Assembly: GCA_016188865.1 (NCBI GenBank)
Contig: JACPGX010000002.1
Span: forward strand, 130,398 to 194,397
Direction: 5' to 3'
Length of the DNA: 64,000 nt
Source of the DNA: Candidatus Nealsonbacteria bacterium
Lineage (GTDB): Bacteria > Patescibacteriota > Minisyncoccia > Minisyncoccales > MHMH01
Part shown: one piece after another, positions 3,206 through 51,686 of the stretch
How the letters are laid out: each line of letters begins with the position of its first letter
Numbering within the stretch: position 1 is the stretch's first letter
Position numbers and translations under genes: made by a program
The notes under the pieces: generated by a model
What the model was told of the DNA's origin: nothing
Databases searched by the model: none
The model's input: the letters and a program-made list of their open reading frames with translations, nothing else

Positions 3206-3285
3206 TTAATTTTAATTAAATATTAATTTGTAGTTGTTATATCTTTTGAATAATTTCATTTTAGATTCAATTTTAGTTAATTATT

Positions 3286-3294
3286 AGTGGATAA
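3286..3294. promoter_or_regulatory. DnaA box-like 9-mer AGTGGATAA (8/9 match to TGTGGATAA)
   Basis: Read directly in the dnaA-dnaN intergenic region. Confidence 0.5.
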
Positions 3295-3316
3295 GCCTGT
3301 TTAAAATAAGTTTTTT

Positions 3317-3351
3317 AAAAACTAAAAACTAAAAACTAAAAACTAAAAACT
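3317..3351. repeat. Five tandem copies of the heptamer AAAAACT (AT-rich, candidate unwinding element)
   Basis: aaaaact x5 read directly, immediately next to a perfect DnaA box. Confidence 0.8.
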
Positions 3352-3354
3352 AAT

Positions 3355-3363
3355 TTATCCACA
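3355..3363. promoter_or_regulatory. Perfect DnaA box TTATCCACA
   Basis: Exact consensus 9-mer, 2 nt from the dnaA stop codon. Confidence 0.65.
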
Positions 3364-3365
3364 GC

Positions 3366-4733
3366 TTATAAACGGCATGCCTGCTCCTTTATTAGACTTA
3401 TTTCCTCAGCTAAATTTTCGTCTTTTTCCAATTCTTTAGCAATTTTATTATATGCATGAATAGCCGTGGTATGGTCTTTCCCGCCGAATTTTCTGCCGAT
3501 AAACGGAAAAGAACACTTTAGTTCATTTCTCAAAAGATACATAGCCACCTGGCGGGGTTTTACAATTTCTTTTTTGCGCGAAACATCTATGAGGTCAGCT
3601 TCTTTCAAATCAAAGAAAAAAGCAGTAGCTTTTACGATTTTTTCCGGATTGATTATTTTTTTCGGAGAAAATATGGCATTTTTGAGAAGCATTTTTGTCG
3701 TTTCTATGTCCGGAGCGCGATTATTTAATTTTTGATACGCATTAATCCTGTTCAGGGCTCCCTCCAATTCTCTGATGTTTCTTTGGATATTTGTTGCGAT
3801 GTATTCAATAATTTCGGCAGAAAAACTAGATTTTTTTTCTTGAGCCTTGGCCTTTAAAATAGCTACTCTGGTTTCAAGGTCGGGCAAGCTTATATCGGCG
3901 ATCATACCGCCTTCAAATCGAGATCTTAATCTTTCCTCTAGGGCAGAGATAGCTTTTGGCGGGCGATCGGATGAAATTACTATTTGTTTATTTTTTTCAT
4001 ATAAATTATTAAAAATATGAAAAAATTCTTCCTGGGTTTTTTCCTTGCCAGCCAAAAATTGGATATCGTCGATGATCAAAAGATCAATATTTTTATAAAA
4101 AGATTTAAATTTTTCTATGTCGTGGTTTTTGATGGAGTCCACTATACCCGAGGTGAATTTTTCGGACGACATGTATCTTATTTTTTTTTCTGGAAATTTT
4201 TGGAATATTTCGTTGCCGATGGACTGTACCAGGTGAGTCTTGCCCAGGCCTACACCCCCATAAACAAACAGGGGATTGTAAGCCTGCCCCGGGCTGCGCA
4301 CTATAGCTAAAGCAGCGGCATGAGCCAGCTCATTAAATGGGCCGACTATAAAACTATCAAACGTATAGCGGGGATTTAAATTTGTTTCTTTGTCTACTTT
4401 TAATTCCGGAAAATCTAATTGAGAAATGCTGCTAATGGCGTTATCGGAAACGGCGGCGGCAGATTGGATTTCTGGTGCTGCCGCATGGGAAGCAAGAACA
4501 TTATATTTTACTTCCCTTACCCCTCCGTCTAAGTTGTGGAGAATTTTGAAAATGATCTTATTGTATTTGTTTTCTAGCCATTCTTTAGAAAAATTATTAG
4601 GCACAGAAACCATAATTTCACCGTCTTTTGCCGAAATAATATTGGTGCCCTTAAACCACGTAGCAAAACTGGCCTTGGAAATATTAAATTGGATTTGAGC
4701 AAGCAGGGCTTGCCACAATTCTTCTTTGTTCAT
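3366..4733 (-). CDS. dnaA: Chromosomal replication initiator DnaA
   Basis: Walker A GGVGLGKTHL, DDIQFL box, C-terminal KFGGKDHTTAIHAYNKI. Start moved to MNKEELW (4733) because a TGtTATAAT -10 element lies inside the track's N-terminal extension. Confidence 0.93.
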   Translation of the reverse strand: MNKEELWQALLAQIQFNISKASFATWFKGTNIISAKDGEIMVSVPNNFSKEWLENKYNKIIFKILHNLDGGVREVKYNVLASHAAAPEIQSAAAVSDNAISSISQLDFPELKVDKETNLNPRYTFDSFIVGPFNELAHAAALAIVRSPGQAYNPLFVYGGVGLGKTHLVQSIGNEIFQKFPEKKIRYMSSEKFTSGIVDSIKNHDIEKFKSFYKNIDLLIIDDIQFLAGKEKTQEEFFHIFNNLYEKNKQIVISSDRPPKAISALEERLRSRFEGGMIADISLPDLETRVAILKAKAQEKKSSFSAEIIEYIATNIQRNIRELEGALNRINAYQKLNNRAPDIETTKMLLKNAIFSPKKIINPEKIVKATAFFFDLKEADLIDVSRKKEIVKPRQVAMYLLRNELKCSFPFIGRKFGGKDHTTAIHAYNKIAKELEKDENLAEEISLIKEQACRL

Positions 4734-4833
4734 AGATTCCAAGGGCATTATAACACATGTCAAAAAAAAGCAAAATTAACTCAAATATTGTTCTTTTGTT
4801 GATAAACTGGGCAAAAACTGTTAATATTTGATT

Positions 4834-8887: not shown

Positions 8888-8932
8888 AGGAGGTACGACC
8901 TCCACTCAAATTTGAGAGGAGGTCGGACCTCT
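8888..8932. repeat. Double-hairpin palindromic element, copy 1 (arms GGAGGTACGACCTCC / GGAGGTCGGACCTC, centre ACTCAAATTTGAGA)
   Basis: Read directly. Related copies lie at 17778-17820 and 43083-43126. Confidence 0.8.
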
Positions 8933-14419: not shown

Positions 14420-16821
14420 AAATTGTACCAATTGCCGAAGATGCCGATATTAAAGCCCGTCAGCTTTAAAAGTACATTCACAAGAGTCCATGCGAAGAAA
14501 ATAAGACTCAAGCCGATGCCAGCGGCTTTCCATAAAGACATTATTTGAGCCATGGCAATGGCTTGCCCTAAGGCCGTGTAAAGCGTTACAGCCGTGGCTA
14601 TAGTTAATAATACCAAAATTATCGGCGTTATTCTAAATAAAAGAAAGTCAAGAATTATTTTTATTGATAAAAAAAGATGTTTGATCTGGCAGGGCTCGCG
14701 TTCATTCCAAGGAGTTTTTTGATTGTCTGTAGCTCTGCCGCAAGGCACTAGTCCGCCTTGGCTCATACCTCCTTCCAAAAAAGTGAAAGTCCATGAGTTA
14801 GACCAGTTGCTGGTTTCCTGGCAATTTTGATCAAGACAGGAGCGGACTTGCCATTGATATCGGCCCAAACATCCCAACTCCGTATAGCTGGAATTGACCA
14901 GCTCGGTTTTTAATGGCGGCACGGAACAGTCTTGGCTTTGTTCTTCAGCCGCTTTAGAAAGCAGTTTGACTTCATATTGGTAAGCCTTGGCTCCTACGAC
15001 TTTTTCCCAAGAAAGAAAATGCTCGTCCGTAAATAACATTCCCCTATTTTGCGGATATGTGGGGCTTAGCGGAGGGGAAATCCGGAATGTTTTAAAATTT
15101 TGAGAACTGCCATAATTGCCGCAAACTTGGCCATTATCACGAATGCAGGTTTTCACTCGCCAACTGTAATTTGTTTCTTGCAGCAAATCCGGAAAATCAA
15201 AAGTGATTTCCGGCTTGTCAGTTATTTTTTCTTCCCCCTTAATTTCAAAGACGTATGATTTGGCGCCGCTTACCGCATCCCATTTAAAATTTACGGGAAT
15301 GGGTATGCCGGCGGCTTCTGTGGCGGGATAAGTCAGATTCGGCGGCTGGCCGGTGGTTTTAAAAGTATAAATATCAGACCAGGAATTTTGGCATTTTTTT
15401 CCTTCATAATCAAAGCAAGAGAGCGCTTGCCATTGGTAAAAAGTGTTAAGCGATAATTCGGGATAGTCAAAAGAGCGACTTCGAGAGGTTCTTGCTAATT
15501 CTTGTTTTGAGTCGATTTTATACCACCAAGAATTAATTCCCGCATCTTTTCGCCAGTCTAATACTAAAGGAAAACCAACTGGCTTTAGCCCTTGCGGGTC
15601 ATCCGGCGGCGCCACCAAGAAAGTTTCGACAGCCGCTTTTTCGCTGGTCTTGAAGGTCCACTGCTGGCTAGGTTCTCCGCAGTCAATGCCGCTATCATCT
15701 GTACATGTGAGAATTTCCCATGCATAGGTGGTGGTTCCCGTGAAAAAGTACATATCCTCGTCTAAAAAATCGGAAAAAAGAGTTTTTTCTATTTGTTCGG
15801 GGTCTCTTCTCTGCTTTCTCAAAACCCAAGAATCACAGAATTCTCTTCCGTTTTTAGCAGCTAGAAGATTGGGGTGGCAGACTTTTTGCCCTCCCTGTAT
15901 TATATAAACGCCGAGGCGGTATGATTCGGCTTTTTCAACGTCGCACCAATCGAGTGTAGTCGGCGTGGAGGTGCCCCCCATATCTAATCCCGCCCAATCG
16001 GCGTCGTAAGGAGCAATAAGTTCCGGGGCCAAGTTGGTTCCAAAACTTTGGCCGTTAGGCCATTCACCGCAGTCCTCCCCTCCCGCATTAAGGCAGGCGC
16101 GGACTCGCCAGAGATAGTCGCCGCCGGATTTTATCTGGCATTCCAGTTTGTAAGCCGAGTCATCAACGGTTTGCAATTGAGTATCGGTTACTATTTTAGA
16201 AAGTGGCGGGTTAACGATATTAAACTCATAAGAGCCGACAGTGCAGAAATTTGGAGATTTAGCCACTTCTTTTTCAACATTATCTTCCCAGCCGAAATTT
16301 ATCGGCAGTTTATATTTAGAGCCATCGGAAACATTTTTTGGCAAAAGGTCGGCGTCGTCCAATGGTTTTAAATCCGGCGCGGGATAGCAGGCGCCTGAAC
16401 ATTGCGGCGTTGACGGGGCCGTGCCCCAATTATTGTAAGTTGCCGGACATATTTGGTAATCAGGCACAGAGCCATAGGGCTTGATCTGGTCGGGCCCGTG
16501 CGGTCCGCTAACTACATTTGTTCCGCCTGAGCTGCTACAGCCATTTGAACAAAACCAATTAACGCATTCGTACCACTCTATTCCCTGTTCCATGGCCCCG
16601 CCGGCTTTCCCGCAGAAATTATTAGCGCATTTATAAACGGCAAAATCGTTACAGCGGTAAGGCGGAGAGGAGCTGCATACTTCTGGCCCCGGGACGCAGG
16701 CTGGCGGCGGGGTGGGGGGCGTTTCTGGAGGAGGCTCCTCTTCGGCTAAGATTAAATTTACAAATAAAAAAGAAGCAAAAACCAGAAAAGCGACAAAAAA
16801 GACAATTAAAAATTTACTCAT
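14416..16821 (-). CDS. Giant Cys-rich repeat surface protein ending in a T4SS pilin (LVPCG) module
   Basis: Signal peptide, then repeated ~90-aa W/C-containing units (YxWRV..C / YQWQ..SC). The C-terminus GGLVPCG...PC...two TM...IFFAWTLVNVLLK parallels the pilin at 24077-24472. Confidence 0.7.
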   Translation of the reverse strand: MSKFLIVFFVAFLVFASFLFVNLILAEEEPPPETPPTPPPACVPGPEVCSSSPPYRCNDFAVYKCANNFCGKAGGAMEQGIEWYECVNWFCSNGCSSSGGTNVVSGPHGPDQIKPYGSVPDYQICPATYNNWGTAPSTPQCSGACYPAPDLKPLDDADLLPKNVSDGSKYKLPINFGWEDNVEKEVAKSPNFCTVGSYEFNIVNPPLSKIVTDTQLQTVDDSAYKLECQIKSGGDYLWRVRACLNAGGEDCGEWPNGQSFGTNLAPELIAPYDADWAGLDMGGTSTPTTLDWCDVEKAESYRLGVYIIQGGQKVCHPNLLAAKNGREFCDSWVLRKQRRDPEQIEKTLFSDFLDEDMYFFTGTTTYAWEILTCTDDSGIDCGEPSQQWTFKTSEKAAVETFLVAPPDDPQGLKPVGFPLVLDWRKDAGINSWWYKIDSKQELARTSRSRSFDYPELSLNTFYQWQALSCFDYEGKKCQNSWSDIYTFKTTGQPPNLTYPATEAAGIPIPVNFKWDAVSGAKSYVFEIKGEEKITDKPEITFDFPDLLQETNYSWRVKTCIRDNGQVCGNYGSSQNFKTFRISPPLSPTYPQNRGMLFTDEHFLSWEKVVGAKAYQYEVKLLSKAAEEQSQDCSVPPLKTELVNSSYTELGCLGRYQWQVRSCLDQNCQETSNWSNSWTFTFLEGGMSQGGLVPCGRATDNQKTPWNEREPCQIKHLFLSIKIILDFLLFRITPIILVLLTIATAVTLYTALGQAIAMAQIMSLWKAAGIGLSLIFFAWTLVNVLLKLTGFNIGIFGNWYNL

Positions 16822-17747
16822 TATTTCATTTTAAAACTTTTAGTCATTTTTATCCAATCTTCGATGCTTAAAGTTTCCGCCCTTTGGGTGGGCTGGATAT
16901 TGTTTGCTAAAAGCCACTCCCCTATTTTATTTTTGTTTATCTTTAGGCTGGCAGACAAATTATTTATTAGCTGCTTTCTCGGTTGGGAAAATCCGGCTTT
17001 GACAATTTTGAAAAAGATTTCCGAAACCGATTTAACACCCGGTGTTTCTCCGTCAACACCGGGTGTTTGACGCGGTTTCGGAAATTCTGGATTCACGGGA
17101 ATAATTTTTATTATTGCTGCGTCTACTTCTGGAGATGGCCAAAAAGAATTCCTTGGGATATAAGAGATAATTTTAGGCTCGGCATAAAATTGCACAGAAA
17201 CCGCCAGAAGGTTCATCCTCGGCGGTTTGGAGCAAATTCTCTGTGCTACCTCCTTCTGCACCACCAGTAATAGATACACGGGTTGCACCCGTGTATTCTC
17301 GAGGAAACGACGGATGACGGGAGCGGTAAGGTAAAAGGGCAGATTGCCGACGACTTTATATCTCAGAAAATCCGATTTCCTCGTTTTAACACCCGGTGTT
17401 TCTGCGTCAACACCGGGTGTTTTTAGGAAATCGGATTTTCTGATATCGTCGCGGATAATCTCCACATTGCCATAGGTTTCACCTATGGATTTTTTAAGTA
17501 TCTCAACCATATTCGGATCTTTTTCTATGGCGATGACTTTTTTAGCTCTCCTTGCTAACTCTTGGGTTAAAACGCCCAAGCCGGGGCCGATTTCCAGTAC
17601 CGTGTCGTTTGGCTGTATGTCGGTGGCCTCGACAATCTGCCGAACAGCTCCACGGTCAATTAAAAAATTCTGGCCGAGTCCCTTGGAGGGTTGGAGATTG
17701 CGGGCCTGGAGGAGGTCTTTAATGACAGATTTGGAAGTTAGGTCCAT
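16821..17747 (-). CDS. rsmA: 16S rRNA (adenine1518/1519-N6)-dimethyltransferase, carrying two in-frame palindromic inserts
   Basis: GQNFLID, VLEIGPGLG (SAM site), VVGNLPFY. 308 aa compared with about 270 aa for typical KsgA. Confidence 0.9.
   Translation of the reverse strand: MDLTSKSVIKDLLQARNLQPSKGLGQNFLIDRGAVRQIVEATDIQPNDTVLEIGPGLGVLTQELARRAKKVIAIEKDPNMVEILKKSIGETYGNVEIIRDDIRKSDFLKTPGVDAETPGVKTRKSDFLRYKVVGNLPFYLTAPVIRRFLENTRVQPVYLLLVVQKEVAQRICSKPPRMNLLAVSVQFYAEPKIISYIPRNSFWPSPEVDAAIIKIIPVNPEFPKPRQTPGVDGETPGVKSVSEIFFKIVKAGFSQPRKQLINNLSASLKINKNKIGEWLLANNIQPTQRAETLSIEDWIKMTKSFKMK
17018..17086. repeat. In-frame palindromic element, copy B (core 17035-17068; 13-nt outer arms)
   Basis: ATTTCCGAAACCG ... 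AACACCCGGTGTT tctccgtc AACACCGGGTGTT ... CGGTTTCGGAAAT. It encodes FPKPRQTPGVDGETPGVKSVSEI in rsmA. Confidence 0.85.
17363..17443. repeat. In-frame palindromic element, copy A (core 17388-17421; 19-nt perfect outer arms)
   Basis: TCAGAAAATCCGATTTCCT ... AACACCCGGTGTT tctgcgtc AACACCGGGTGTT ... AGGAAATCGGATTTTCTGA. It encodes RKSDFLKTPGVDAETPGVKTRKSDFL. Confidence 0.9.
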
Positions 17748-17777: not shown

Positions 17778-17820
17778 GGGAGGTCCGACCTCCGTCTAGA
17801 TTTGGCGGAGGTCGGACCTC
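17778..17820. repeat. Double-hairpin palindromic element, copy 2
   Basis: GGGAGGTCCGACCTCC gtctagatttggc GGAGGTCGGACCTC, in the divergent rsmA / LysM-M23 intergenic region. Confidence 0.8.
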
Positions 17821-17880: not shown

Positions 17881-19005
17881 ATGGAAAGCCTGTTAGGTTT
17901 GCCCCAGATACTAAGGAAAAGATGGCTGAAAAGAGCGATTCGGGGGCTTAAAAAATCAAAAATAAGGATTTTGCGGGATTTTAAGGGTTCTTCAAGAGAT
18001 CCCTTGTTTTATTTAGGCACGCTAGCGGTTATTTTATTCGGATTTATCGCTGTTTTGGCGCCAGCCACCGTTAACTCGCCTCTTTTAGCTGAAGACGCTT
18101 TATCGCTAAGGGGAGCTTTTATTATTCCAGCGGAAAAGATACAAGAGTCTCCCGATTTGAGTATTATACAGGGCAACAGCTTAGCCGCTGTTTCGCCTCC
18201 TATTTTGGTAACCCCCCAGGTTTTAGGGGCGCTAGTCGGGGGTGGAGATTTTAGTTGGCAAGAAAAAGAAGTGGTTGAATATGAAATCCAGCCGGGGGAT
18301 AACCTGTGGTCGATTGCCGAGAAATTTAACGTTTCCCTTGAGACTATTTTATGGGCGAATAATCTTAATAAGAACTCTTTGATTCAAATTGGTCAAAAAT
18401 TAGTGATTTTGCCGGTTTCAGGCATTAGCCATCAAGTTGGTAGGGGCGACACTGTTTCGCGAATCGCTCAGACTTACAAAACTAAAATTGATGATATTAT
18501 CGCTTTCAATGATTTATCCGGAGAAGGAGACATCTATATCGGAGATATTTTGATTATTCCCAACGGAGTCCAGCCTCCGCCGGTTATTTATGCTCCTAAA
18601 CTTGTTCCATTGGCTTCCAGTTACTTTCTCTGTCCGATTTCCGAGCCCTGCAGGGTCACTCAAGGTTTACATTGGTACAATGCTATTGATTTTAGCCATG
18701 GTAAGTGCGGAGATCCGATTTATGCGGCAGCTGCCGGCACAATACAAAAGGTTAAACTAACTAATTCTACGTCCAGATGGGCTTTTGGCGGAGGCGGCAA
18801 CCATTTGACCATCCTGCACCCCAATGGCGTAGTCACCTATTACGGTCACTTACAAGCGGCACTAGTAAATCCGGGCGATTATATTTCCCAGGGTCAGATG
18901 ATTGCTATTATGGGCGGCCAACCAGGCACTCCCGGCGCTGGCAAATCAACTGCTTGCCACGTGCACTTCGGAGTTACCGGAGCCAAGAATCCGTTTGCAA
19001 AATAA
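17881..19005 (+). CDS. LysM-domain M23 family peptidoglycan endopeptidase
   Basis: Two LysM repeats (YEIQPGDNLWSIAEKF, HQVGRGDTVSRIAQTY). M23 motifs HLTILH...YGHL and CHVHFGV. Confidence 0.85.
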   Translation: MESLLGLPQILRKRWLKRAIRGLKKSKIRILRDFKGSSRDPLFYLGTLAVILFGFIAVLAPATVNSPLLAEDALSLRGAFIIPAEKIQESPDLSIIQGNSLAAVSPPILVTPQVLGALVGGGDFSWQEKEVVEYEIQPGDNLWSIAEKFNVSLETILWANNLNKNSLIQIGQKLVILPVSGISHQVGRGDTVSRIAQTYKTKIDDIIAFNDLSGEGDIYIGDILIIPNGVQPPPVIYAPKLVPLASSYFLCPISEPCRVTQGLHWYNAIDFSHGKCGDPIYAAAAGTIQKVKLTNSTSRWAFGGGGNHLTILHPNGVVTYYGHLQAALVNPGDYISQGQMIAIMGGQPGTPGAGKSTACHVHFGVTGAKNPFAK

Positions 19006-19034
19006 AATGTAACGGGTACGACCCGTTACATTTT
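19004..19034. terminator. Bidirectional intrinsic terminator
   Basis: aaaaTGTAACGGGTacgACCCGTTACAtttt: perfect 13-14 bp stem flanked by A and T runs, between convergent genes. Confidence 0.8.
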
Positions 19035-19036
19035 AT

Positions 19037-19405
19037 TTATTTAGAGCACTTCATGCAGAATCTGGCTTCGGGCGAGACTTTTAACCGGTCTTCGTCGATA
19101 TCCTTGTCGCAATTCTCGCATTTTCCATATTTGTTATTTGCTATTTTTTCCAGAGCTAAATCAATATTTTTGAGTCTAAGCTCTAAGGTGTGTTCAACTG
19201 ATAAACGACCCTCGTATTCTTCAACTTCGTCAGCTGCCGACTCTAAAGCAGCTCCGCCAAACTCACCGTTAAATTTAGGGAACTTGGAATCCCAGTCCCC
19301 CTTTAGATTAGGATCTTTATCAGCAAAAGTTTTTAGCTGCTCCTCAATGGCAGCTTTTTCTTTTTCTAGTTTTTCTTTGAGTTCTGCGACTAAATTTTTA
19401 TTCAT
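19037..19405 (-). CDS. DksA/TraR-family C4 zinc-finger protein
   Basis: Coiled-coil N-terminus; C-terminal CENC...(x17)...CMKC. Confidence 0.75.
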   Translation of the reverse strand: MNKNLVAELKEKLEKEKAAIEEQLKTFADKDPNLKGDWDSKFPKFNGEFGGAALESAADEVEEYEGRLSVEHTLELRLKNIDLALEKIANNKYGKCENCDKDIDEDRLKVSPEARFCMKCSK

Positions 19406-24472: not shown

Positions 24473-24495
24473 ATTTTTATTATATCATAATTTAT

Positions 24496-24523
24496 GTTTC
24501 ACGTGAAACCCAGCTTAGCTGGG
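24496..24523. repeat. 14-bp palindrome GTTTCACGTGAAAC followed by the hairpin CCCAGCttaGCTGGG
   Basis: Read directly between the Fic stop and the pilin start. On the minus strand the second hairpin is followed by a short T-run (TTTCAC), so a terminator role is only weakly supported. Confidence 0.6.
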
Positions 24524-24531
24524 TGAAACTT

Positions 24532-25458
24532 TTATGCCTTACGTTCTAAAATTCCGAATCCATACGCAACCGCCTCGCATATAAAATTTTCCAATTGGCT
24601 GTGGTCGCCTTTGGTTTGCGCCTTATAAAGATAAGTATAATAAAGCTGTTTTTTTTCTTGGAGAATAACAGCCGGAGCAAGATTGGCTTCCAGAAGCATT
24701 GACTGCATAAGCAAGCGGCCAATACGGCCGTTACCGTCAGAAAAAGGATGAATTTGCTCGAATTGAGCGTGGATTTTAACCGATAAAGCGATTATATCAT
24801 CCGTAGTTTTAGCAGCTTCTTTAATAATGGCCGGCATAAGAACGGGGATTTTTAGATAATTGGCCGTCGGCAAATTAATACCGGTAATCCGTACGGCATG
24901 GCTGCGGTATAAGCCGGCGTCCGGTCTGATCCCGCTCATGAGAATAGCGTGGAGCTTTAATATCAAATTTTCATCTACAATGCCTCTCTCCAGCGCGTGA
25001 TTGAATAAATAATTTAGCGCTGTTTGGTGATTTTTAGCTTCCAGTTGTTCTGTTAAACTTTTGTCCGGCAAGGCGGCATTTTCAAAGAGAATAGCGGCCG
25101 TGTCCGGCTCAGTAAGTTTACTGCCCTCTATGCGATTGCTGTGGAAGGTGAGCTTTAGAATAAATTGGTCGCGGATATCAGGATTATTTAAAATTTCGGC
25201 AATAACGCTTTTGTGCTCCAACGACTTTTGGCGTAAAACTTCTTTTTTGGCATTAAGCTGTTCGGCCGGAATGATTTTTTGGCCAGTTACTTCCAGAAAT
25301 AATTCCTCAATAGCGGTTTGCATCTTGGGCCTGGGAGTAGATTTGCCGGTCCACCAGCTGTTGAATGCGGGAAAGGACACGCCGAGCTGTTCGGCTAATT
25401 TAGTCTGCGTAAGTCCTAACAATTTTTGGATAGTTTCGAGTTTTTGACGTAGGGTCAT
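24532..25458 (-). CDS. XRE-type HTH + Fic domain protein
   Basis: N-terminus LGLTQTKLAEQLGVSFPAFNSW (HTH); Fic motif HPFSDGNGRIGRLL. Confidence 0.85.
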   Translation of the reverse strand: MTLRQKLETIQKLLGLTQTKLAEQLGVSFPAFNSWWTGKSTPRPKMQTAIEELFLEVTGQKIIPAEQLNAKKEVLRQKSLEHKSVIAEILNNPDIRDQFILKLTFHSNRIEGSKLTEPDTAAILFENAALPDKSLTEQLEAKNHQTALNYLFNHALERGIVDENLILKLHAILMSGIRPDAGLYRSHAVRITGINLPTANYLKIPVLMPAIIKEAAKTTDDIIALSVKIHAQFEQIHPFSDGNGRIGRLLMQSMLLEANLAPAVILQEKKQLYYTYLYKAQTKGDHSQLENFICEAVAYGFGILERKA

Positions 25459-25467
25459 AATATTTAT

Positions 25468-25496
25468 ATTGTAGCAAACTTTATAAAGTTAGTCAA
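25468..25496 (-). promoter_or_regulatory. Sigma70-type promoter of the HTH-Fic gene (TTGACT-17-TACAAT)
   Basis: The minus strand reads TTGACTaactttataaagtttgcTACAAT. The spacer is occupied by a 14-bp palindrome. Confidence 0.6.
25477..25490. promoter_or_regulatory. Putative operator 1: perfect palindrome AACTTTATAAAGTT
   Basis: Sits exactly between the -35 and -10 elements of the HTH-Fic promoter. Confidence 0.55.
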
Positions 25497-25505
25497 AAAC
25501 AGCCG

Positions 25506-25519
25506 AACTTTATAAAGTT
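25506..25519. promoter_or_regulatory. Putative operator 2: identical palindrome AACTTTATAAAGTT
   Basis: Second exact copy, 29 bp centre-to-centre from operator 1. Confidence 0.55.
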
Positions 25520-25540
25520 AGGCAGTTACTGGTTTGTCTT

Positions 25541-25561
25541 GTTAGACATTGAATGTCTAAC
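25541..25561. repeat. 21-bp perfect palindrome GTTAGACATTGAATGTCTAAC (copy 1)
   Basis: An identical copy lies at 53069-53089. Both are located just 3' of a minus-strand tRNA. Confidence 0.85.
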
Positions 25562-25583
25562 GTTAATTCGTGAAACTTTTTTA

Positions 25584-25656
25584 TGCCCCCGGCAAGAGTC
25601 GAACTTGCAATCTTCTGCTTCGAAGGCAGACATGTTATCCATTACACCACGGGGAC
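25584..25656 (-). tRNA. tRNA-Arg (anticodon TCG)
   Basis: GTCCCCG TG GTGT AATGGATA ACAT G TCTGC CTTCGAA GCAGA AGAT TGCAAG-TTCGACT-CTTGC CGGGGGC A. T-arm boundaries are approximate. Confidence 0.85.
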
Positions 25657-25669
25657 GTCTTTTTATATT

Positions 25670-26608
25670 TTATCTCTTTCTTTCCCTTCCCTCCAAATAT
25701 CTTTTTAGCGCTTCTTTAGAGACTACCCAAATTCTACCTTCCTTATGAGCCTCTAATTTGCCGGTTCGGGCAAGAAGATTTAAATATTTAGGAGAATATT
25801 TAGTGCCCCTACTCAATTCTTCCAGTGATATAAATTTTTCTCTCGGTTTACCAGGAGTTAATACTTTAAGGTAAATATCAAGGGATCTTTCTACAGATTG
25901 GAAAATAAAACGGACAAAAGGTGTGGAGTCTTTTTTGTCGGCTTGAGCCAATGTATGATAGTATTTTTTTCTGTCATTTTTCAAGATAACAGAAAGAGGA
26001 TAGCCAGCCCTCATTAGTATGACATTCATTATTAATCTTGCAGTTCGGCCATTTCCGTCAAAGAAGGGGTGGATAGCCGTTATCTTGTGGTGGATAATTG
26101 CGGCTAGTTCAACCGGGTGGAGCTTTTTTTGATTTTTTCCGATCCATTTGATTAAATTTTCCATTAATTTTGGCACTTCAATGGCTTCAGGCGGTTTATG
26201 GTCGGCTCCGCCGATTAATACCGCGCTGTTTCTATATTTTCCGGCCCATTCTCTGTCAATATCTTGAGTCACTATTTGGTGGAATAACCTAATCAATCTT
26301 TCAGAGATTGTGTTTCGCTTATCTTTAGATACCGACTCGTATAAATAATCTAATGCTTCCTTATGGCTTTTTGCCTCAAGATGGTCTTTGAGGGGCTTGC
26401 CTTTTATTGTAATACCTTCATTAATAACTAAGTAGGTTTCTTTTAAAGTCAAACTGTTGCCCTCAATGGCATTGGAGTTATAGGTCATTTCTATCTCAAA
26501 CTGCTCCCGTATTTTTCTTACGGCAGATTCCGGCAATGGTCTGTACGAATTTAGAATTTTTAACTTTTCGTTTAGCCTCCCTCCTATTTTTTCTTCTAGG
26601 TAATGCAT
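25670..26608 (-). CDS. Fic domain protein with a C-terminal excisionase/MerR-like HTH
   Basis: Fic motif HPFFDGNGRTARLIMN. C-terminus ISLEELSRGTKYSPKYLNLLARTGKLEAHKEGRIWVVSKEAL. Confidence 0.85.
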   Translation of the reverse strand: MHYLEEKIGGRLNEKLKILNSYRPLPESAVRKIREQFEIEMTYNSNAIEGNSLTLKETYLVINEGITIKGKPLKDHLEAKSHKEALDYLYESVSKDKRNTISERLIRLFHQIVTQDIDREWAGKYRNSAVLIGGADHKPPEAIEVPKLMENLIKWIGKNQKKLHPVELAAIIHHKITAIHPFFDGNGRTARLIMNVILMRAGYPLSVILKNDRKKYYHTLAQADKKDSTPFVRFIFQSVERSLDIYLKVLTPGKPREKFISLEELSRGTKYSPKYLNLLARTGKLEAHKEGRIWVVSKEALKRYLEGRERKR

Positions 26609-26718: not shown

Positions 26719-28194
26719 ATGGTTATCCCAAAAGAAGTAAAATCCGTCATAGCAAAACTCAAAAAGAAAGGATATGAGGCATATATTGTCGGCGGCTGCG
26801 TCCGCGATTTTTTGCGTGGCGTAGAACCTAAAGATTGGGATATAACTACCAATGCCAAGCCGGAAGAAATCCGCAAGACCTTTGCTAGGAGTTTTTACGA
26901 GAACAAATTTTTAACCGTTACCGTTCAAACGGCTAGTAAAGACCCCACACTTAAGGAAATCGAGGTCACTACCTATCGATCAGAGGCAAAATATACAGAT
27001 AAAAGGCACCCAGACGAAGTGAAATATGCTAAAACCCTAGAAGAAGACTTGGCGAGGAGGGATTTTACGGTGAATGCGATGGCCGTGGGTTTAACACCCG
27101 GTGTTGCACGTGAAACACCGGGTGTTGAGGACCCGTTCGGCGGACAGAAAGACTTAGAAACTAAGTTCCTAAGAACGGTGGGCGAGCCGGAAGAGAGGTT
27201 TGGCGAAGACGCTCTGCGGATGATGAGAGCGGTAAGGTTTGCCGTCACCTTAGGCGAAGATTGGCAGATTGAGCCAAAAACAGCTGAAGCTATAAAGAAA
27301 AATGCCCCATGGCTTCAGGCGATTTCCCACGAGAGAGTTAGAGACGAACTATTGAAAATCATTATGTCGGAAAGGGCGATGGAGGGTATTAGCCTTTTAA
27401 GGGAGCTGACTTTACTAAAGTATATTATTCCGGAGCTTGAGGAGGGTTATGGGGTGGGGCAAAATAAACACCATATTTACAACTGCTACGAACATTCTTT
27501 GCTTTCTTTAAAATACGCTGCTCAAAAAGGGTTTAACATGGAAGTGAGATTATCTGCCCTGCTTCATGATGTGGGTAAGCCAAGAGCAAAGCGAGGCGAG
27601 GGTCAAGATTCCACTTTTTACAATCATGAAGTAATTGGCGCTAGAATGACAGCAGGTATTTTAAACCGTTTAAAATTTCCGACTAAAGAGATTGAGAAAA
27701 TAACAAAGCTGGTAAGATATCACCTTTTCTATTATAATGTGGATGAAGTGGGAGATTCTTCTGTCAGGAGGCTGGTCAGGCAGGTGGGGCCGGAAAACAT
27801 GGAAGAACTTTTGCAGGTAAGGATGTCTGACAGAATCGGCTCGGGCGTGCCTAAGGCCGAGCCGTATAAATTGCGACATTTGAAATACGTAGTTGAGAAA
27901 GTCAGCAGAGATCCGATTTCTGCCAAAATGCTCAAAGCGGATGGGAACGATGTAATGAAGCAGCTGAAAATTGGGCCGGGGCCGAAAATAGGACAAATTT
28001 TGGATGTCTTATTGGGACATGTCCTAAATGACCCGAAGAATAACAAAAAAGAGTGGCTTGAAAAAGAAATTGCCAAATTAGGCAAATTGAGCGATAAAGA
28101 GCTCAAGGATTTAGCCGAAGAGGGCCGCAAAGAACGAGAAAAACTGGAAACAAAACGCGATCAAATGACAAAAAGTAAATATTGGGTAACGTAG
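26719..28194 (+). CDS. cca: CCA-adding enzyme / poly(A) polymerase family with an HD domain, carrying an in-frame palindromic insert
   Basis: GGCVRDFLRG..PKDWDITT, RDFTVNAMA, DPFGG, HD motif LLHDVGKP. Confidence 0.9.
   Translation: MVIPKEVKSVIAKLKKKGYEAYIVGGCVRDFLRGVEPKDWDITTNAKPEEIRKTFARSFYENKFLTVTVQTASKDPTLKEIEVTTYRSEAKYTDKRHPDEVKYAKTLEEDLARRDFTVNAMAVGLTPGVARETPGVEDPFGGQKDLETKFLRTVGEPEERFGEDALRMMRAVRFAVTLGEDWQIEPKTAEAIKKNAPWLQAISHERVRDELLKIIMSERAMEGISLLRELTLLKYIIPELEEGYGVGQNKHHIYNCYEHSLLSLKYAAQKGFNMEVRLSALLHDVGKPRAKRGEGQDSTFYNHEVIGARMTAGILNRLKFPTKEIEKITKLVRYHLFYYNVDEVGDSSVRRLVRQVGPENMEELLQVRMSDRIGSGVPKAEPYKLRHLKYVVEKVSRDPISAKMLKADGNDVMKQLKIGPGPKIGQILDVLLGHVLNDPKNNKKEWLEKEIAKLGKLSDKELKDLAEEGRKEREKLETKRDQMTKSKYWVT
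27093..27126. repeat. In-frame palindromic element, copy C (core only)
   Basis: AACACCCGGTGTT gcacgtga AACACCGGGTGTT, encoding TPGVARETPGV in the loop between NAMA and DPFGG. Confidence 0.85.
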
Positions 28195-28767: not shown

Positions 28768-28832
28768 TAAAAGGGCGCTATTCTTTGAGGGTGGCGCTTT
28801 TTATAATGTTATTTATAATATATAATATATCA

Positions 28833-30263
28833 ATGATAAGCACGTGCCGGCAAAAAGGGCAAATTCAAATCGTTGTATTAGTAGTAGCTGTTTTAGTGAT
28901 TGCCGGAATTTATTTCGGGGCTCGTTTTTTTGGCAAATCTGACGGAGAACAAATTGGCAAAGAGAAAATAATCGAGAATTCAAATGATGATGTCCCGCCT
29001 CTGCGCACCAATCTTTTGCCGTCAGGCGTCCTTTCTTTGAATACTTCTAAAACTACCCTTACCCTGGTCACCGACGAGCCGGCCTATTGCCGTTATTCTA
29101 GCGAACCCGATCAAGCCTATATTAATATGTCAAAGGGGTTTGGGCCTGATAAAAATAAAACATCTCACAGCGTAAACGCCAGTGGTCTTGAAAACGGTAA
29201 GGTTTACAAATACCATGTCCGCTGCCAAGATATGGCAGGCAACAGGAATACCGAAGATGCTTTGATTGAGTTTAGCGTGGGGTCAGCTGTTTCACGTGAA
29301 ACAGCCGTTCTTTCTGCGCCGTTGCCGAGCGAAGCGCCGCCCACGCGGAGCAATCTCCTGCCCTCGGGCACTCTCTCCAGCGGTACCACTAAGACTACGA
29401 TTGGCCTCATCACCAATGAATCAGCTTATTGCCGTTATGCCAGCCAATCGCAGCCATACATTAATATGTCCAAGGGGTTTTCATCTGATAAAGATAAATT
29501 ACAGCACACAGCCACTGTTTCCGGACTGGCGGATAATAAAATTTACGAATATTATGTGCGCTGCCGCGATGTTAAGGGCAATGAGAATGACGATGATGCG
29601 ATAATCCGCTTTGGCATTGGCGGAGCTTCTGTCAATCAAACTCCTTTGGGGGCAGATGCCACGCCTCCCAATCGTTTTAGCGCTTCCCCAAGCGGCAGTT
29701 TGCCGGTAAGCACTCGCCAGACAAACATTAAACTTCAAACTGATGAAAAAGCCATTTGCAGATATAGCGAGACTGCCGGACTTGGCTATGATTCTATGAA
29801 GAATTTTTCTAATACTAATTCAACTTCTCATTTAGCGGAGATATTGGGATTGGATGAGGGCGGTTCTTATAAATTTTATGTGCGGTGCGCTGACCAGTAT
29901 GGCAATAAAAACACCAACGATTTCATTATTTCGTTCAAGGTAGAGACGGCAGAAGATGAAATCCCGCCTATTTTATCAAATCCTTCCCATAATGGAAATA
30001 TTTTGCCTTCCGGCACTGCCCAAGTTGTAATAAGCATCAGTACCAATGAGCCGTCTGCCTGCCGTTATTCTGCGAATGCAGGCACTGTTTACAATTCAAT
30101 GTCGGGAAGATTCTCTTATTATGACCAAACCCAAAAATTTCACACTAAAAGCGTTACCGGCCTGCAAAATGGCAGAGGATACGATTATTTTGTCCGCTGC
30201 CAAGACTTGGCAGGCAATGCAAACATCGGGGATGTTTTAATAAGTTTTAGCATAGCGCAGTAA
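28833..30263 (+). CDS. Membrane-anchored protein with four tandem ~100-aa repeats
   Basis: Repeat consensus is LPSG.LS..T..T.L.L.T.E.A.CRYS....Y..M...F......H...V.GL.....Y.Y.VRC.D..GN. Start chosen at MISTCRQ. Confidence 0.6.
   Translation: MISTCRQKGQIQIVVLVVAVLVIAGIYFGARFFGKSDGEQIGKEKIIENSNDDVPPLRTNLLPSGVLSLNTSKTTLTLVTDEPAYCRYSSEPDQAYINMSKGFGPDKNKTSHSVNASGLENGKVYKYHVRCQDMAGNRNTEDALIEFSVGSAVSRETAVLSAPLPSEAPPTRSNLLPSGTLSSGTTKTTIGLITNESAYCRYASQSQPYINMSKGFSSDKDKLQHTATVSGLADNKIYEYYVRCRDVKGNENDDDAIIRFGIGGASVNQTPLGADATPPNRFSASPSGSLPVSTRQTNIKLQTDEKAICRYSETAGLGYDSMKNFSNTNSTSHLAEILGLDEGGSYKFYVRCADQYGNKNTNDFIISFKVETAEDEIPPILSNPSHNGNILPSGTAQVVISISTNEPSACRYSANAGTVYNSMSGRFSYYDQTQKFHTKSVTGLQNGRGYDYFVRCQDLAGNANIGDVLISFSIAQ
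29286..29305. repeat. 20-bp perfect palindrome GCTGTTTCACGTGAAACAGC inside the CDS (encodes AVSRETAV)
   Basis: Read directly. It lies in the linker between repeat units 1 and 2 and shares GTTTCACGTGAAAC with 24496-24509. Confidence 0.8.
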
Positions 30264-37711: not shown

Positions 37712-37740
37712 AAACATACGAGAACCGTTCTCGTATGTTT
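37712..37740. repeat. 29-bp hairpin copy 1 (centre C)
   Basis: aaacatacgagaacCgttctcgtatgttt, ending 1 nt before the ATG at 37742. Confidence 0.9.
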
Positions 37741-37741
37741 T

Positions 37742-38458
37742 ATGCCGATAAAAAGACCGCCAATAATTACCGGAGAAATCTATCATATTGTGATTAAGGC
37801 AGTTGATAGGACAAAACTCTTTCGAGATCAAAGAGATTATTTTAGAATGGTCCACGATTTATTTGAATTTAATGACGAAAAACCTACTTCGCCGTATTAT
37901 CGTCAAGAGCCCAAACATACGAGAACGGTTCTCGTATGTTTGGAAAAAAGACATACTGGCCGGGAATGTCTAGTAGAGATTTTGGCATTTTGCTTAATGT
38001 CGAATCACGTACATTTATTGATAAGACAGTTAAAAGATAATGGAATTAGTAAATTCATGAGAAAGATTGGGGCTGGGTACGGTGGCTACTATAATAAAAA
38101 ATATAAGAGAAGCGGGCATTTATTCCAGGGAAAATATCGAATTGTTTATATTAAAGACGATCAACAATTAATTACAGTTTTTGTTTATATTCACACTAAT
38201 CCAGTAGCCTTATTGGCTCCGGACTGGAAGGAAAAGGGGATTGATAAAAAAGATTTACGGAAAATTATAAAATTTATAGAAGATTATCGATGGTCGAGCT
38301 ATTCAGACTATTTGGGAAAGAAAAATTTTCCATCTTTAACAACCAGAGATTTTTTATTAAATGAATTCGGAGTGGTTAAGGAAGCTCAAAGATTTGTTAA
38401 TGATTGGCTCCAAACTAAGAGAGAATTGGCCGATCTTGAACAAGTAGCTATAGAATAA
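37742..38458 (+). CDS. Y1 (HUH) transposase, IS200-like / RAYT
   Basis: HUH motif SNHVHLLI; catalytic Tyr region VYIHTNPV. Confidence 0.85.
   Translation: MPIKRPPIITGEIYHIVIKAVDRTKLFRDQRDYFRMVHDLFEFNDEKPTSPYYRQEPKHTRTVLVCLEKRHTGRECLVEILAFCLMSNHVHLLIRQLKDNGISKFMRKIGAGYGGYYNKKYKRSGHLFQGKYRIVYIKDDQQLITVFVYIHTNPVALLAPDWKEKGIDKKDLRKIIKFIEDYRWSSYSDYLGKKNFPSLTTRDFLLNEFGVVKEAQRFVNDWLQTKRELADLEQVAIE
37913..37941. repeat. 29-bp hairpin copy 2 (centre G), in-frame inside the transposase CDS
   Basis: aaacatacgagaacGgttctcgtatgttt, encoding KHTRTVLVCL. Confidence 0.9.
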
Positions 38459-38487
38459 AAACATACGAGAACGGTTCTCGTATGTTT
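38459..38487. repeat. 29-bp hairpin copy 3 (centre G)
   Basis: Begins on the nucleotide after the TAA stop (38456-38458). Confidence 0.9.
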
Positions 38488-38490
38488 TGA

Positions 38491-42457: not shown

Positions 42458-43042
42458 ATGAATCTCATTCCAACCGTTATAGAGAAGTCTCAATATGGTG
42501 AGAGGGCCTATGATATCTATTCCCGGCTCTTGAAAGAGAGGATAGTTTTTTTAGCAAGCCCCATTACTGATTCCGTGGCAAATTCAATTATTGCCCAGCT
42601 TTTGTTTTTGGCTTCAAAAGACGCTGATAAAGATATTCAGCTTTACATTAACACTCCGGGCGGTTCTGTTACTGCCGGTTTGGCAATTTACGACACTATG
42701 CAGTATATTAAATGTCCGGTTTCTACGGTTTGCGTAGGATTGGCAGCTTCCATGGGCGCTACCTTGTTGGCAGCCGGCGCCAAAGGCAAAAGGTTTGCCT
42801 TGCCAAATTCGCAGGTGATGATGCATCAGGTGGCCGGGGGAGTGACCGGCGAAGCTATAGAAATTGAAATTACGGCTAAGCAAATAATTAAAATCAAAGA
42901 AAAACTAAACAAGATTTTGGCCAAACATACCGGTCAGTCTCTTGAAAAAGTGGAAAGAGATACTGACCGCGATTTTTATCTTGATGCTCAAGAAGCCAAA
43001 GAATATGGCATTATCGACGAAGTGATTAAGACCAAAGAATAA
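42458..43042 (+). CDS. clpP: ATP-dependent Clp protease proteolytic subunit
   Basis: IPTVIE....[18 protein letters not shown], catalytic [12 protein letters not shown]. Confidence 0.95.
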
Positions 43043-43082
43043 ATAATGGATATCGGATATCCATTATTTACCTCAGATTTCT

Positions 43083-43126
43083 TGGTTTACGAAACCCACT
43101 TAAATTTGAGAGGGTTTCGTAAACCA
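43083..43126. repeat. Double-hairpin palindromic element, copy 3 (different arms, same centre)
   Basis: TGGTTTACGAAACCC acttaaatttgaga GGGTTTCGTAAACCA. Confidence 0.8.
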
Positions 43127-50547: not shown

Positions 50548-51686
50548 TCAAAAAGTTGTATAATGCCACCCAATTTTAGACTCCGCGGGCATTTTAAATA
50601 GTTGATTAATAGATTGGTTTTGCAGTTGTCCCCGCAGCAGTTTTTGTTCCTGCCACTGCATCATAAATTGTACCGGAGATAGCTTGTTTTGGAAAGCGCA
50701 GTGGACTCTTTCTGTGTTGTAAAAAATCAGATAATCAACGAGCCTTCGGTTGAATTTGTCAGGATCAATCAAGAGATAGGCGAAGTAGTCGATGAATTCT
50801 TCCTGGATAGTCCGGTTAAATCTTTCGACATGAGTATTCATTTGAGGGCACTTGGGATAGGTGTGGTAATGGGTGAGGTGGAGTTCTCTCAACCTTTCGG
50901 CAAAATGCTTCTTAAATTCAGACCCGTTGTCGGTTAAAACCCAAAGAAGGTTGAATGAATACGGAAATACTTTAAGGCATAACTCAAAGAATTCTTCGGC
51001 TGCCTTAGAGGCGTGGGACTTGGTTGACCAAGCAAAGCTGAAGCGGGTATATATGTCTTCAAAAGTAATGACGTATCTGCGGCAGCCGTTGATTATCTTT
51101 TCTATCGTATCTAAAGCGATTAAATGGCCCGGGTATTCTGGTTTCAGGTCTTTTGGCTTCCTTAATACCTTCTGGCGCTTAATTGGCTTTATCTTGCCAA
51201 AGTGGGATATCTTCCTGGGAAACACCCTCATTTTATCTGGAGCGTCAGCGATAATCCGAGCAATAGTTCTCGGCTGAGGACACTTTAAATTGCTCGTCTT
51301 GCAGAAAGACGATAATAGAGGATAAATCTTTTCTGGGCCTAAGTTGGGGTGTTCTTCTATGTCTCTGATGCTCCTAATCTTCTGTCTTATCTCAAACGGC
51401 CAGATTCTCTTGCGTCTTGTTATGGGAACGCGTTTCTTGTCGTTAAGGGTCTCTAATTTACCACCTCCTTCTTTGAATTTCTTCTTCCAGAGAAAGAGAG
51501 TCGGCTTTTTTCTGGGAAAGCGTCCATTGTTGCCTCAAGGCCGTGCTTTTCCCAGAAGACTAATACCTTGGCCTTGTATTTGGCTTTTTCCGTAATCATA
51601 TACCGGTATCTTAACCCGTCGTTGTAGACGGTCAAAAACCCCTTGATGCCGGTATATTTGCAATGAATATGATTAAAAAACTCCAT
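50548..51686 (-). pseudogene. DDE (rve) transposase interrupted by a frame change at an A6 run (51506-51511)
   Basis: The N-terminal ORF (51686-51453) stops. The -1 frame continues KKPTLFLWKKKFKEGGGKLETLNDKKR... without stops into ORF 51231-50548 (DDE residues in LIALDT, TDNGSEF, ERFNRTIQEE). Confidence 0.7.

Follow-up and report, generated by a model that had tools for sequence, protein, structure and literature searches.

The DNA analysed here is a stretch of 64,000 nucleotides from a Candidatus Nealsonbacteria genome (referred to below as the window), and it carries three in-frame copies of a short paired palindrome within two unrelated genes that lie about 10 kb apart. One copy is found in cca (26719-28194, plus strand), which encodes a CCA-adding enzyme, this being a class II nucleotidyltransferase with an HD domain. 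The open reading frame (ORF) has the Pfam domains PolyA_pol, PolyA_pol_RNAbd, HD and tRNA_NucTran2_2, and among solved structures its product is closest to CCA-adding enzymes (E 3e-45). The other two copies are in ksgA/rsmA (16821-17747, minus strand), the gene for a 16S rRNA dimethyladenosine transferase (Pfam RrnaAD, E 9e-51). Both of these gene products, and a transposase encoded in the window, match proteins of a Candidatus Nealsonbacteria metagenome-assembled genome with 100% identity. We consider it quite probable that the doublet is a pair of hairpins of the repetitive extragenic palindrome (REP) type, similar to REPINs (REP doublets forming hairpins), and that it belongs to one of several odd-palindrome families tied to a clade of Y1 transposases resembling the REP-associated tyrosine transposases (RAYTs).

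The doublet in cca occupies positions 27093-27126 and has the sequence AACACCCGGTGTT-gcacgtga-AACACCGGGTGTT, with its arms at 27093-27105 and 27114-27126 and its spacer at 27106-27113. It is translated as ...AMAVGL-TPGV-ARE-TPGV-EDPFGG, between the motifs RRDFTVNA and DPFGG. A search for the 13-mer AACACCSGGTGTT found six copies without mismatch in the window, starting at 17034, 17055, 17388, 17409, 27093 and 27114, where 0.06 would be expected from shuffled sequence. These six form three doublets, each with a spacer of 8 nt, two of them in ksgA and one in cca, and the pattern AACACCCGGTGTT-N8-AACACCGGGTGTT occurs three times. In the minus-strand ORF the ksgA doublets read QTPGVDGETPGVKS and KTPGVDAETPGVKT. 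All three doublets are in the phase that encodes TPGV, and all six units use identical codons. The sequence, the 13-mer search and the translations therefore agree with a preliminary description of this DNA, which had reported a 34-bp core in cca read as TPGV-ARE-TPGV, and three copies in the same phase in two unrelated housekeeping genes.

That description also took the 34-bp core to be the common unit, and here we differ from it. The true unit is the 13-nt odd palindrome AACACC-S-GGTGTT (where S is C or G), with 6+1+6 nucleotides and able to form a stem-loop, and the 34-mer is one common format in which two such units stand head to head. The spacers of other doublets range from 1 to 30 nt, which is why the 13-nt hairpin is to be preferred, and in the first ksgA copy the piece that appears to have moved is longer, at about 66-69 bp.

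When folded as DNA, the cca doublet has a predicted energy of -19.5 kcal/mol (z -4.3), and its outer flanks pair weakly, as had been noted before. The ksgA copies have predicted outer stems of 13 and 19 bp and fold with -28.3 and -33.1 kcal/mol (z -8.7 and -13.8). Measured against solved homologues, the net insertions are +7 residues in the cca product and +9 and +14 residues in the ksgA product, all of them in loops. The great predicted stability of these folds fits a role for the hairpins at the level of RNA, as mRNA stabilisers, terminators or RNase targets. Such roles have been proposed in the REP literature (PMC3733652), and the window has related doublets a short way past the ends of genes, at 8889 and 43083. 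We regard this as a very unlikely explanation of the element. It is hard to see what benefit a hairpin of -28 to -33 kcal/mol would bring to an essential ORF, and the element is present or absent among close orthologues and occurs in both orientations; moreover, the proposal concerns what a hairpin does once it is there, and leaves its spread and its link to a transposase unexplained. An Rfam scan of the whole window returned tRNAs only, with no known RNA family at the hairpin element.

The unit is widely distributed. Public genomes (one per species) were scanned for AACACCSGGTGTT-N0-30-AACACCSGGTGTT, a pattern that requires two perfect arms no more than 30 nt apart, and this gave 123 exact doublets in 114 loci. 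The identical 13-mer is present in at least 40 genomes from many phyla. Among the Patescibacteria the hosts of the doublet loci are Nealson-, Giovannoni-, Sacchari-, Uhr-, Staskawicz-, Wildermuth-, Andersen- and Nomurabacteria and Parcubacteria; the other hosts include Omnitrophota, Planctomycetales, Endomicrobiales, Gammaproteobacteria, Myxococcales, Acidimicrobiia, Verrucomicrobia, Armatimonadetes and others. Inverted pairs, with a central C followed by a central G or the reverse, make up 110 of the 123 doublets, although the search itself demanded paired units. The commonest spacer length is 8 nt. The flanks differ from locus to locus, mostly lengthening the palindrome, and the outer repeats are variable. 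Some metagenome-assembled genomes (MAGs) hold tens of copies: in the loci that were fetched there are 44 units from Planctomycetales MAGs (mostly CAZASA01), 37 from 'Patescibacteria group' MAGs (mostly JAHJTG01), 18 from JAGLOF01 and 18 from the Nealsonbacteria group (three MAGs plus the window). No doublet was found in a scan of viral contigs, giving no link to phage, and a literature search for the motif returned unrelated primer or vector matches only. An assembly or adapter artefact is ruled out by the copies found at orthologous sites in independent assemblies, together with evolutionary variants.

When 263 units were oriented by their central base, the flank consensus was no higher than 0.3 bits at any position, with a weak C(-1)/G(+1) preference that extends the palindrome. 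The sequence CGTC...GACG around some copies had suggested a tag of the GTAG/CGTC kind seen in REPs; given the flat flanks, this candidate was rejected as a stem extension in a subset of copies.

The 13-mer has no stop codon in any frame, and its three frames read TPGV, NT(R/G)C and H(P/R)V. A census of reading phase was made over the 114 doublet loci and the window, in which open frames of at least 150 codons were used as a heuristic in place of gene annotation. By this measure 97 of 133 coding units are in the TPGV phase, against an expectation of one third (p 1e-20), and 36 are in the other two frames. The TPGV majority holds at open-frame thresholds from 100 to 300 codons, and is seen in 28 of 39 genomes (p 1e-6). 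The spacers show a similar bias, lengths that keep the frame (length mod 3 = 2) being found in 42/63 coding doublets and in 19/63 non-coding ones (Fisher p 7e-5). Phase is thus non-random across these genomes, as had been suspected from the three copies in the window. The proportion of units in open frames depends on the host: it is 16/18 in Nealsonbacteria, 10/10 in Giovannonibacteria and 26/32 in Saccharibacteria, whereas Endomicrobiales (2/12 coding) and JAGLOF01 (0/18 coding) have mainly extragenic units, and in Planctomycetales the units are mostly non-coding. The simplest reading is one of selection after insertion, in which copies persist if they preserve the frame and place small, turn-forming residues in a tolerant loop.

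A bias towards one peptide could also mean that TPGV-x3-TPGV is itself a motif selected at the level of protein, the palindromy of the DNA being incidental. Thr-Pro-Gly-Val could plausibly form a loop or turn, and loops are where all three window copies are found. We find this hardly credible, for several reasons. Fully 63 of 126 doublets are non-coding and both orientations occur, which identifies a DNA element and not a peptide motif; in addition, more than a quarter of the coding units (the 36 noted above) are in a different frame, the six window units share identical codons, intergenic copies of the element stand beside transposase genes, and close orthologues are without it.

The window also contains a gene for a RAYT-like HUH/Y1 transposase of the IS200-like type (37742-38458, plus strand; Pfam Y1_Tnp, E 7e-12), the product being about 240 residues long. 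Three hairpins accompany this gene: AAACATACGAGAAC-C-GTTCTCGTATGTTT immediately upstream (37712-37740), and AAACATACGAGAAC-S-GTTCTCGTATGTTT both inside the ORF (37911-37943), where it is translated in frame as PKHTRTVLVCLE, and at the stop codon (38458-38488). The region 37712-38488 is therefore a unit like the REPtron, in which REPs flank their transposase gene, with the hairpin core ACGAGAAC-S-GTTCTCGT. The same upstream, internal and downstream layout is repeated at locus L203, which holds a close Nealsonbacteria homologue, and at L204 there is another hairpin on both sides. A second, unrelated transposase in the window is an ORF with an rve (IS3-type) integrase core at 50548-51231.

The best NCBIfam match of the window Y1 protein is the REP-associated tyrosine transposase family NF047646, at 50.7 bits against a cut-off of 80 bits. 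Seven aligned Y1 proteins share an N-terminal YH, the HUH motif and Y-x3-NP, the last two being invariant. The single sequence found no match in the PDB, and a profile of the clade was needed. The profile of the seven proteins, searched against solved structures, places the E. coli RAYT 4ER8 first (E 2e-4), ahead of ISDra2 TnpA (E 0.01). Foldseek likewise gave 4ER8 as the top match, starting from a low-confidence AlphaFold model (pLDDT 56.6), and the structures of ISDra2 and IS608 TnpA are the next best after the RAYT. The RAYT-like clade is abundant in Nealsonbacteria and is present in many phyla.

A tblastn search with the window Y1 protein found homologues in 6 of the 114 doublet loci. AACACC-S-GGTGTT units are found 38 nt before and 26 nt after the Y1 gene in L064 (Saccharibacteria), and 33 nt before and 50 nt after it in L070 (Patescibacteria), where there are several on each side. 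In L075 (a Pseudomonadota MAG) a G..C variant stands 30 nt before the gene and a unit 18 nt after it, and in L007 the 5' side of the gene has a doublet at a distance of 99 nt, with a split unit past the 3' end. The Y1 genes of L014 and L017 are flanked by other odd palindromes. A further locus, L196, has the variant cGACACC-S-GGTGTCg at 39 and 52 nt from the two ends of its Y1 gene. Exact or G..C-variant units thus adjoin Y1 homologues in five loci (L064, L070, L075, L007 and L196). It is worth recording that in L064 the transposase unit and two AACACC-S-GGTGTT doublets (2444-3622) are bracketed by a direct duplication of about 55 bp of host sequence (ggtggctacgccggcggccgatgaggagttagcggggtaaaaccagagtgag).

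The association is broader than this one hairpin. A metagenome scan using the Y1 alignment returned 521 relatives, of which 80 loci were kept. The same palindrome (stem of at least 7 bp, within 300 nt) is present on both sides of the Y1 gene in at least 25 of these 80, a figure that is a lower bound, many of the metagenomic loci being truncated. The flanking palindromes are mostly odd, and the single central base flips between copies; examples are GAAATC-S-GATTTC in L125 and GGTTTC-C-GAAACC in L131. A single Nealsonbacteria contig of 271 kb has at least four diverged Y1 paralogues (P0245, P0253, P0294 and P0303), which suggests that there are several transposase-hairpin pairs per genome. In the window 23 hairpins have a centre of CCG, CGG, ACG or CGT and a stem no shorter than 5 bp, where about 3 would be expected from shuffled sequence, and the diverged paralogues account for much of this excess.

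Several such hairpins, among them those at 19000-19038 and 43040-43070, are at the ends of genes, where they may act as terminators too. Two intergenic double hairpins, at 8889-8931 (GGAGGT-ACG-ACCTCC) and 43083-43126 (GGTTT-ACG-AAACC), differ in their arms and have the palindromic spacer ACTYAAATTTGAGAG in common. A GGAGGTC-S-GACCTCC doublet is present at 17779-17820, in the spacer between the divergent genes for KsgA and a LysM peptidase.

Both ksgA copies are nested composites on the minus strand. Copy 1 (17017-17085) has its core doublet at 17034-17067, read TPGV-DGE-TPGV, and its outer arms, ATTTCCGAAACCG and CGGTTTCGGAAAT, are a degenerate GGTTTC-S-GAAACC unit of the type that flanks the Y1 gene in L131. 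Copy 2 (17360-17446) has its core at 17388-17421, read TPGV-DAE-TPGV, and its outer arms (17360-17381 and 17425-17446) are a doublet of the L125-type hairpin GAAATC-S-GATTTC, from which comes the peptide RKSDFL found on both sides of the core. Since the outer repeats are units of other hairpin families, these are nested inserts. Among 120 KsgA orthologues, the loop that holds copy 2 (loop 2) ranges from 21 to 65 residues and contains a TPGV doublet in 11, in either orientation; one orthologue (P0131) has just the outer doublet (ESDFLK-RKSDFL), and others have other hairpin-derived peptides. Loop 1 ranges from 25 to 48 residues in the same set, with a TPGV doublet in the window alone. Positions 17018-17085 are nearly identical to a segment of about 66 bp between atpD and atpC in another Nealsonbacteria genome (L054). 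The similarity stops sharply at both borders and the flanks are unrelated, and this recurrence at a non-homologous site indicates that the composite moved as a unit. A third palindrome in ksgA, at 17272-17298 (ATACACGGGT-TGC-ACCCGTGTAT, read NTRVQPVY), resembles CACGGGTT-S-AACCCGTG, a hairpin that is found flanking the Y1 gene of L121 and also in orthologue P0048, where it takes up the cca loop.

The cca loop behaves in a similar way. The preliminary description had placed the core in a variable loop between RDFTVNAMA and DPFGG, and alignment to 120 CCA-enzyme orthologues upholds this: the stretch from RRDFTxNA to DPFGG is 8-36 residues long in proteins that are 70-80% identical overall. Minimal loops, such as VAMNAEVI and MAVSANGEII, have no palindrome. 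P0005 has arms of the form GACACC-S-GGTGTC, a coordinated variant, and the same unit flanks the Y1 gene in L196. The P0067 loop shows a two-sided change that preserves the complementarity of arm 1 and arm 2. P0107 (TPDV...TSGV) was considered as a further compensated variant and rejected, its DNA showing it to be a decayed copy. The P0048 loop has AATTGCACGGGTT-C-AACCCGTGCAATT, with the Y1-flanking hairpin of L121 as its core, and the P0065 loop has a palindrome with 21-bp arms. All three host loops are thus hypervariable hotspots, with different hairpins, or none, in close orthologues. Elsewhere in cca, at 27658-27676, there is a perfect palindrome with an 8-bp stem (ATTTTAAA-CCG-TTTAAAAT, read ILNRLKF).

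Loops of this kind, which are indel hotspots with many unrelated palindromes and low-complexity repeats, are also what would be expected if the hairpins spread without any transposase, by fold-back or template-switch synthesis combined with short-patch gene conversion between quasi-palindromes. The Y1 association would then be secondary, for example because a Y1 gene itself tends to land among hairpins. Complementary changes on both arms, like the one in P0067, are expected from gene conversion within a hairpin too, and neither a tag, nor a target duplication, nor a cleavage motif was found. Nevertheless we judge this alternative unlikely. Local de novo origin cannot explain an identical 13-mer in at least 40 genomes of many phyla. 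Nor does it sit well with units placed symmetrically, 18-50 nt from both ends of the Y1 gene, in several unrelated genomes, with Y1 relatives that each have their own hairpin on both sides, or with the sharp-bordered 66-bp composite at an unrelated site.

The cca copy has one further property. The inner 4 nt of each arm (TGTT and AACA) and the 8-nt spacer together form TGTTGCACGTGAAACA (27102-27117), which matches the 16-bp chromosomal parS consensus TGTTNCACGTGAAACA with no mismatch (PMC7022226). Sites of this kind are commonly found inside coding regions (PMC7022226). The CACGTG that the preliminary description noted in the spacer is indeed there, and its place within a perfect parS was missed. 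Three parS sites are clustered in 4.8 kb at a distance of about 22 kb from dnaA, and this is the middle one. The first, TGTTTCACGTGAAACC (24495-24510), is intergenic and has one mismatch; the third, TGTTTCACGTGAAACA (29288-29303), is a perfect palindromic parS inside the ORF at 28785-30263, where it encodes V-S-R-E-T, its codon phase being that of the cca site (V-A-R-E-T). The other DNA that was fetched, 1.13 Mb in all, has no perfect parS site and three with one mismatch, all of them around cca in a syntenic relative (L118). The middle site of that relative is just past the stop codon of cca, a position with no similar sequence in the window. The chance of an 8-nt spacer completing a parS is 6e-5, and none of the 123 doublets elsewhere has a spacer of this type; on these grounds the parS identity is taken as real. 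As far as can be judged from the sequence, the doublet in cca probably loads ParB.

It could be proposed from this that all three copies are binding sites for protein, either ParB sites or paired operators, with the coding frame merely tolerated. The perfect parS is part of an origin-proximal cluster, and palindromes with centres 21 bp apart are separated by two helical turns, which would put two dimers on one face of the helix. As an explanation for all copies, parS is ruled out, only the cca spacer being a fit: the ksgA spacers (TCTCCGTC and TCTGCGTC) match it at 10/15 positions, and the 123 other doublets do not have it. Binding sites in the wider sense are also very improbable, given spacers that vary from 1 to 30 nt, tens of copies in many genomes (some of them flanking transposase genes), and orthologues with no site, or with other hairpins, at the same place.

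With regard to the setting of the parS cluster, dnaN (2060-3205) and dnaA (3366-4763) are near the start of the window, and a minimum of the cumulative GC skew, together with a switch of gene strand from minus to plus, is found at about 24-27 kb, adjoining the cluster. The dnaN/dnaA pair (2-4.8 kb) is therefore apart from the skew minimum and strand switch (about 24-26.7 kb), and the replication origin may be some 20 kb distant from dnaA. Between a T4SS-pilin gene and cca there are two tandem Fic-domain genes and a tRNA-Arg gene (24532-26608). In three relatives (L199, L200 and L202) the pilin gene is directly upstream of cca, and no Fic domain was recorded at the position before cca in L118 or L201.

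Taken together, the bias of phase, the bias of spacer length, the copies flanking transposase genes and the recurring 66-bp composite all support a mobile element with frame-specific survival, which had been put forward from the window alone. By analogy with the biochemistry of the IS200/IS605 insertion sequences and of RAYTs, the transposase would recognise the folded hairpin in single-stranded DNA, and would cut and join it at replication forks. In the gene-dense genomes of the Candidate Phyla Radiation (CPR), many insertions would then fall in ORFs. Those that survive would be in a tolerant surface loop with the frame kept, encoding the small and turn-forming Thr-Pro-Gly-Val, and frames containing Cys or His/Arg would mostly be lost; new hairpins would nest into older ones.

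There are several points that weigh against this interpretation. We infer transposition from the distribution of the copies. The flanks of the 263 units have no conserved tag or cleavage motif, and no clean pair of empty and filled sites was recovered, the loops being too diverged. The 64-kb window has no transposase gene flanked by AACACC-S-GGTGTT, and the Y1 gene there has a different hairpin, so that the three doublets may be orphans or may be served in trans. The score of the window Y1 protein is below the NCBIfam cut-off for RAYTs, and its predicted model is of low confidence, so that the Foldseek ranking lends weak support. The phase census was restricted to doublets with two perfect arms no more than 30 nt apart and to heuristic open frames, and it sampled many genomes rather than the window's own. 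The same 13-mer is found across many phyla, and REPs are normally specific to a lineage. On the side of parS, the cca loci of four other relatives (L199-L202) are without a site, and a scan of 42 window ORFs gave no ParB or ParA.

A more far-reaching proposal, which we advance tentatively and think rather doubtful as it stands, is that a class of 13-nt hairpins spanning phyla, together with its divergent RAYT-like clade, colonises the surface loops of essential proteins in streamlined CPR genomes and renders these loops hypervariable, the hairpins nesting within each other and sometimes being co-opted, as with the parS in cca. The systems of REPs, REPINs and RAYTs are known mainly from Proteobacteria and as extragenic elements; here the unit is smaller, is found in many phyla and lies largely in essential CPR genes. 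The frame filter is strong and measurable, and the element offers a tangible example of how selfish DNA shapes the loops of proteins. The element explains recurrent odd insertions in CPR housekeeping proteins, and annotators should be warned that such loops are derived from repeats. If the parS in cca is functional, it would represent a mobile-element scaffold recruited as a chromosome-segregation site.

How, then, does the element compare with known systems? It resembles the parS/ParB system in that the cca copy contains the exact 16-bp consensus and is clustered with two other sites about 22 kb from dnaA, and differs in that one doublet out of three is a parS, embedded in a doublet of a mobile element. 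Among the derivatives of IS200/IS605, the palindrome-associated transposable elements (PATEs) and similar miniature inverted-repeat elements (MITEs) are non-autonomous hairpin elements, whose mobilisation is attributed to a Y1 HUH transposase acting in trans on single-stranded DNA. The ends of IS200/IS605 elements are asymmetric, with distinct left and right subterminal hairpins and a target tetra- or pentanucleotide, whereas the flanking units described here are identical palindromes with no target motif detected.

A second comparison is with the Rickettsia palindromic elements (RPEs). Ogata and co-workers reportedly described these in 2000 as lying in frame in unrelated Rickettsia housekeeping genes, in a reduced genome, and as being translated into extra peptides at the protein surface. 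Some Rickettsia genes have been hit twice. RPE-1 is about 100-150 bp long and is restricted to Rickettsia. The likeness lies in the in-frame palindromic insertion into unrelated protein-coding genes (here cca and ksgA), for which orthologues with a minimal loop exist. The element in the window differs in being 34-87 bp long and without a CGTC tag, in crossing phyla, and in its link to Y1 genes; the two are set apart here by the descriptions of their size and tag. RPE-4 and RPE-6 are in fact CGTC-tagged REPs with intragenic copies in frame, and no dedicated transposase is known for RPEs of this CGTC type (PMC3733652).

The closest comparison is with REPs, REPINs and their RAYTs, which have palindromic units, inverted doublets, copies flanking the transposase gene in the REPtron, and occasional intragenic copies (PMC3116915, PMC3733652, PMC5581495). 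In the literature open to our search, no paper was found linking RAYTs or REPINs to CPR/Patescibacteria. There are also differences. The unit is 13 nt long and a perfect odd palindrome with a single central C or G, compared to 20-40 nt for REPs, and the GTAG/CGTC tag of REPs is absent from it. The CPR copies are mostly intragenic, REPs being mainly extragenic; the transposase is divergent, with its length of about 240 residues and its score below the RAYT cut-off, and one copy doubles as a parS. What is shared is the overall architecture: dispersed stem-loop units in multiple copies, mostly in inverted doublets that can fold into one long hairpin; units flanking a single HUH/Y1 transposase gene in the REPtron layout; and, within one genome, different RAYT paralogues with different hairpin families. 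The element is therefore best filed with the REP/REPIN-RAYT systems, and in coding DNA it behaves like the RPEs of Rickettsia.

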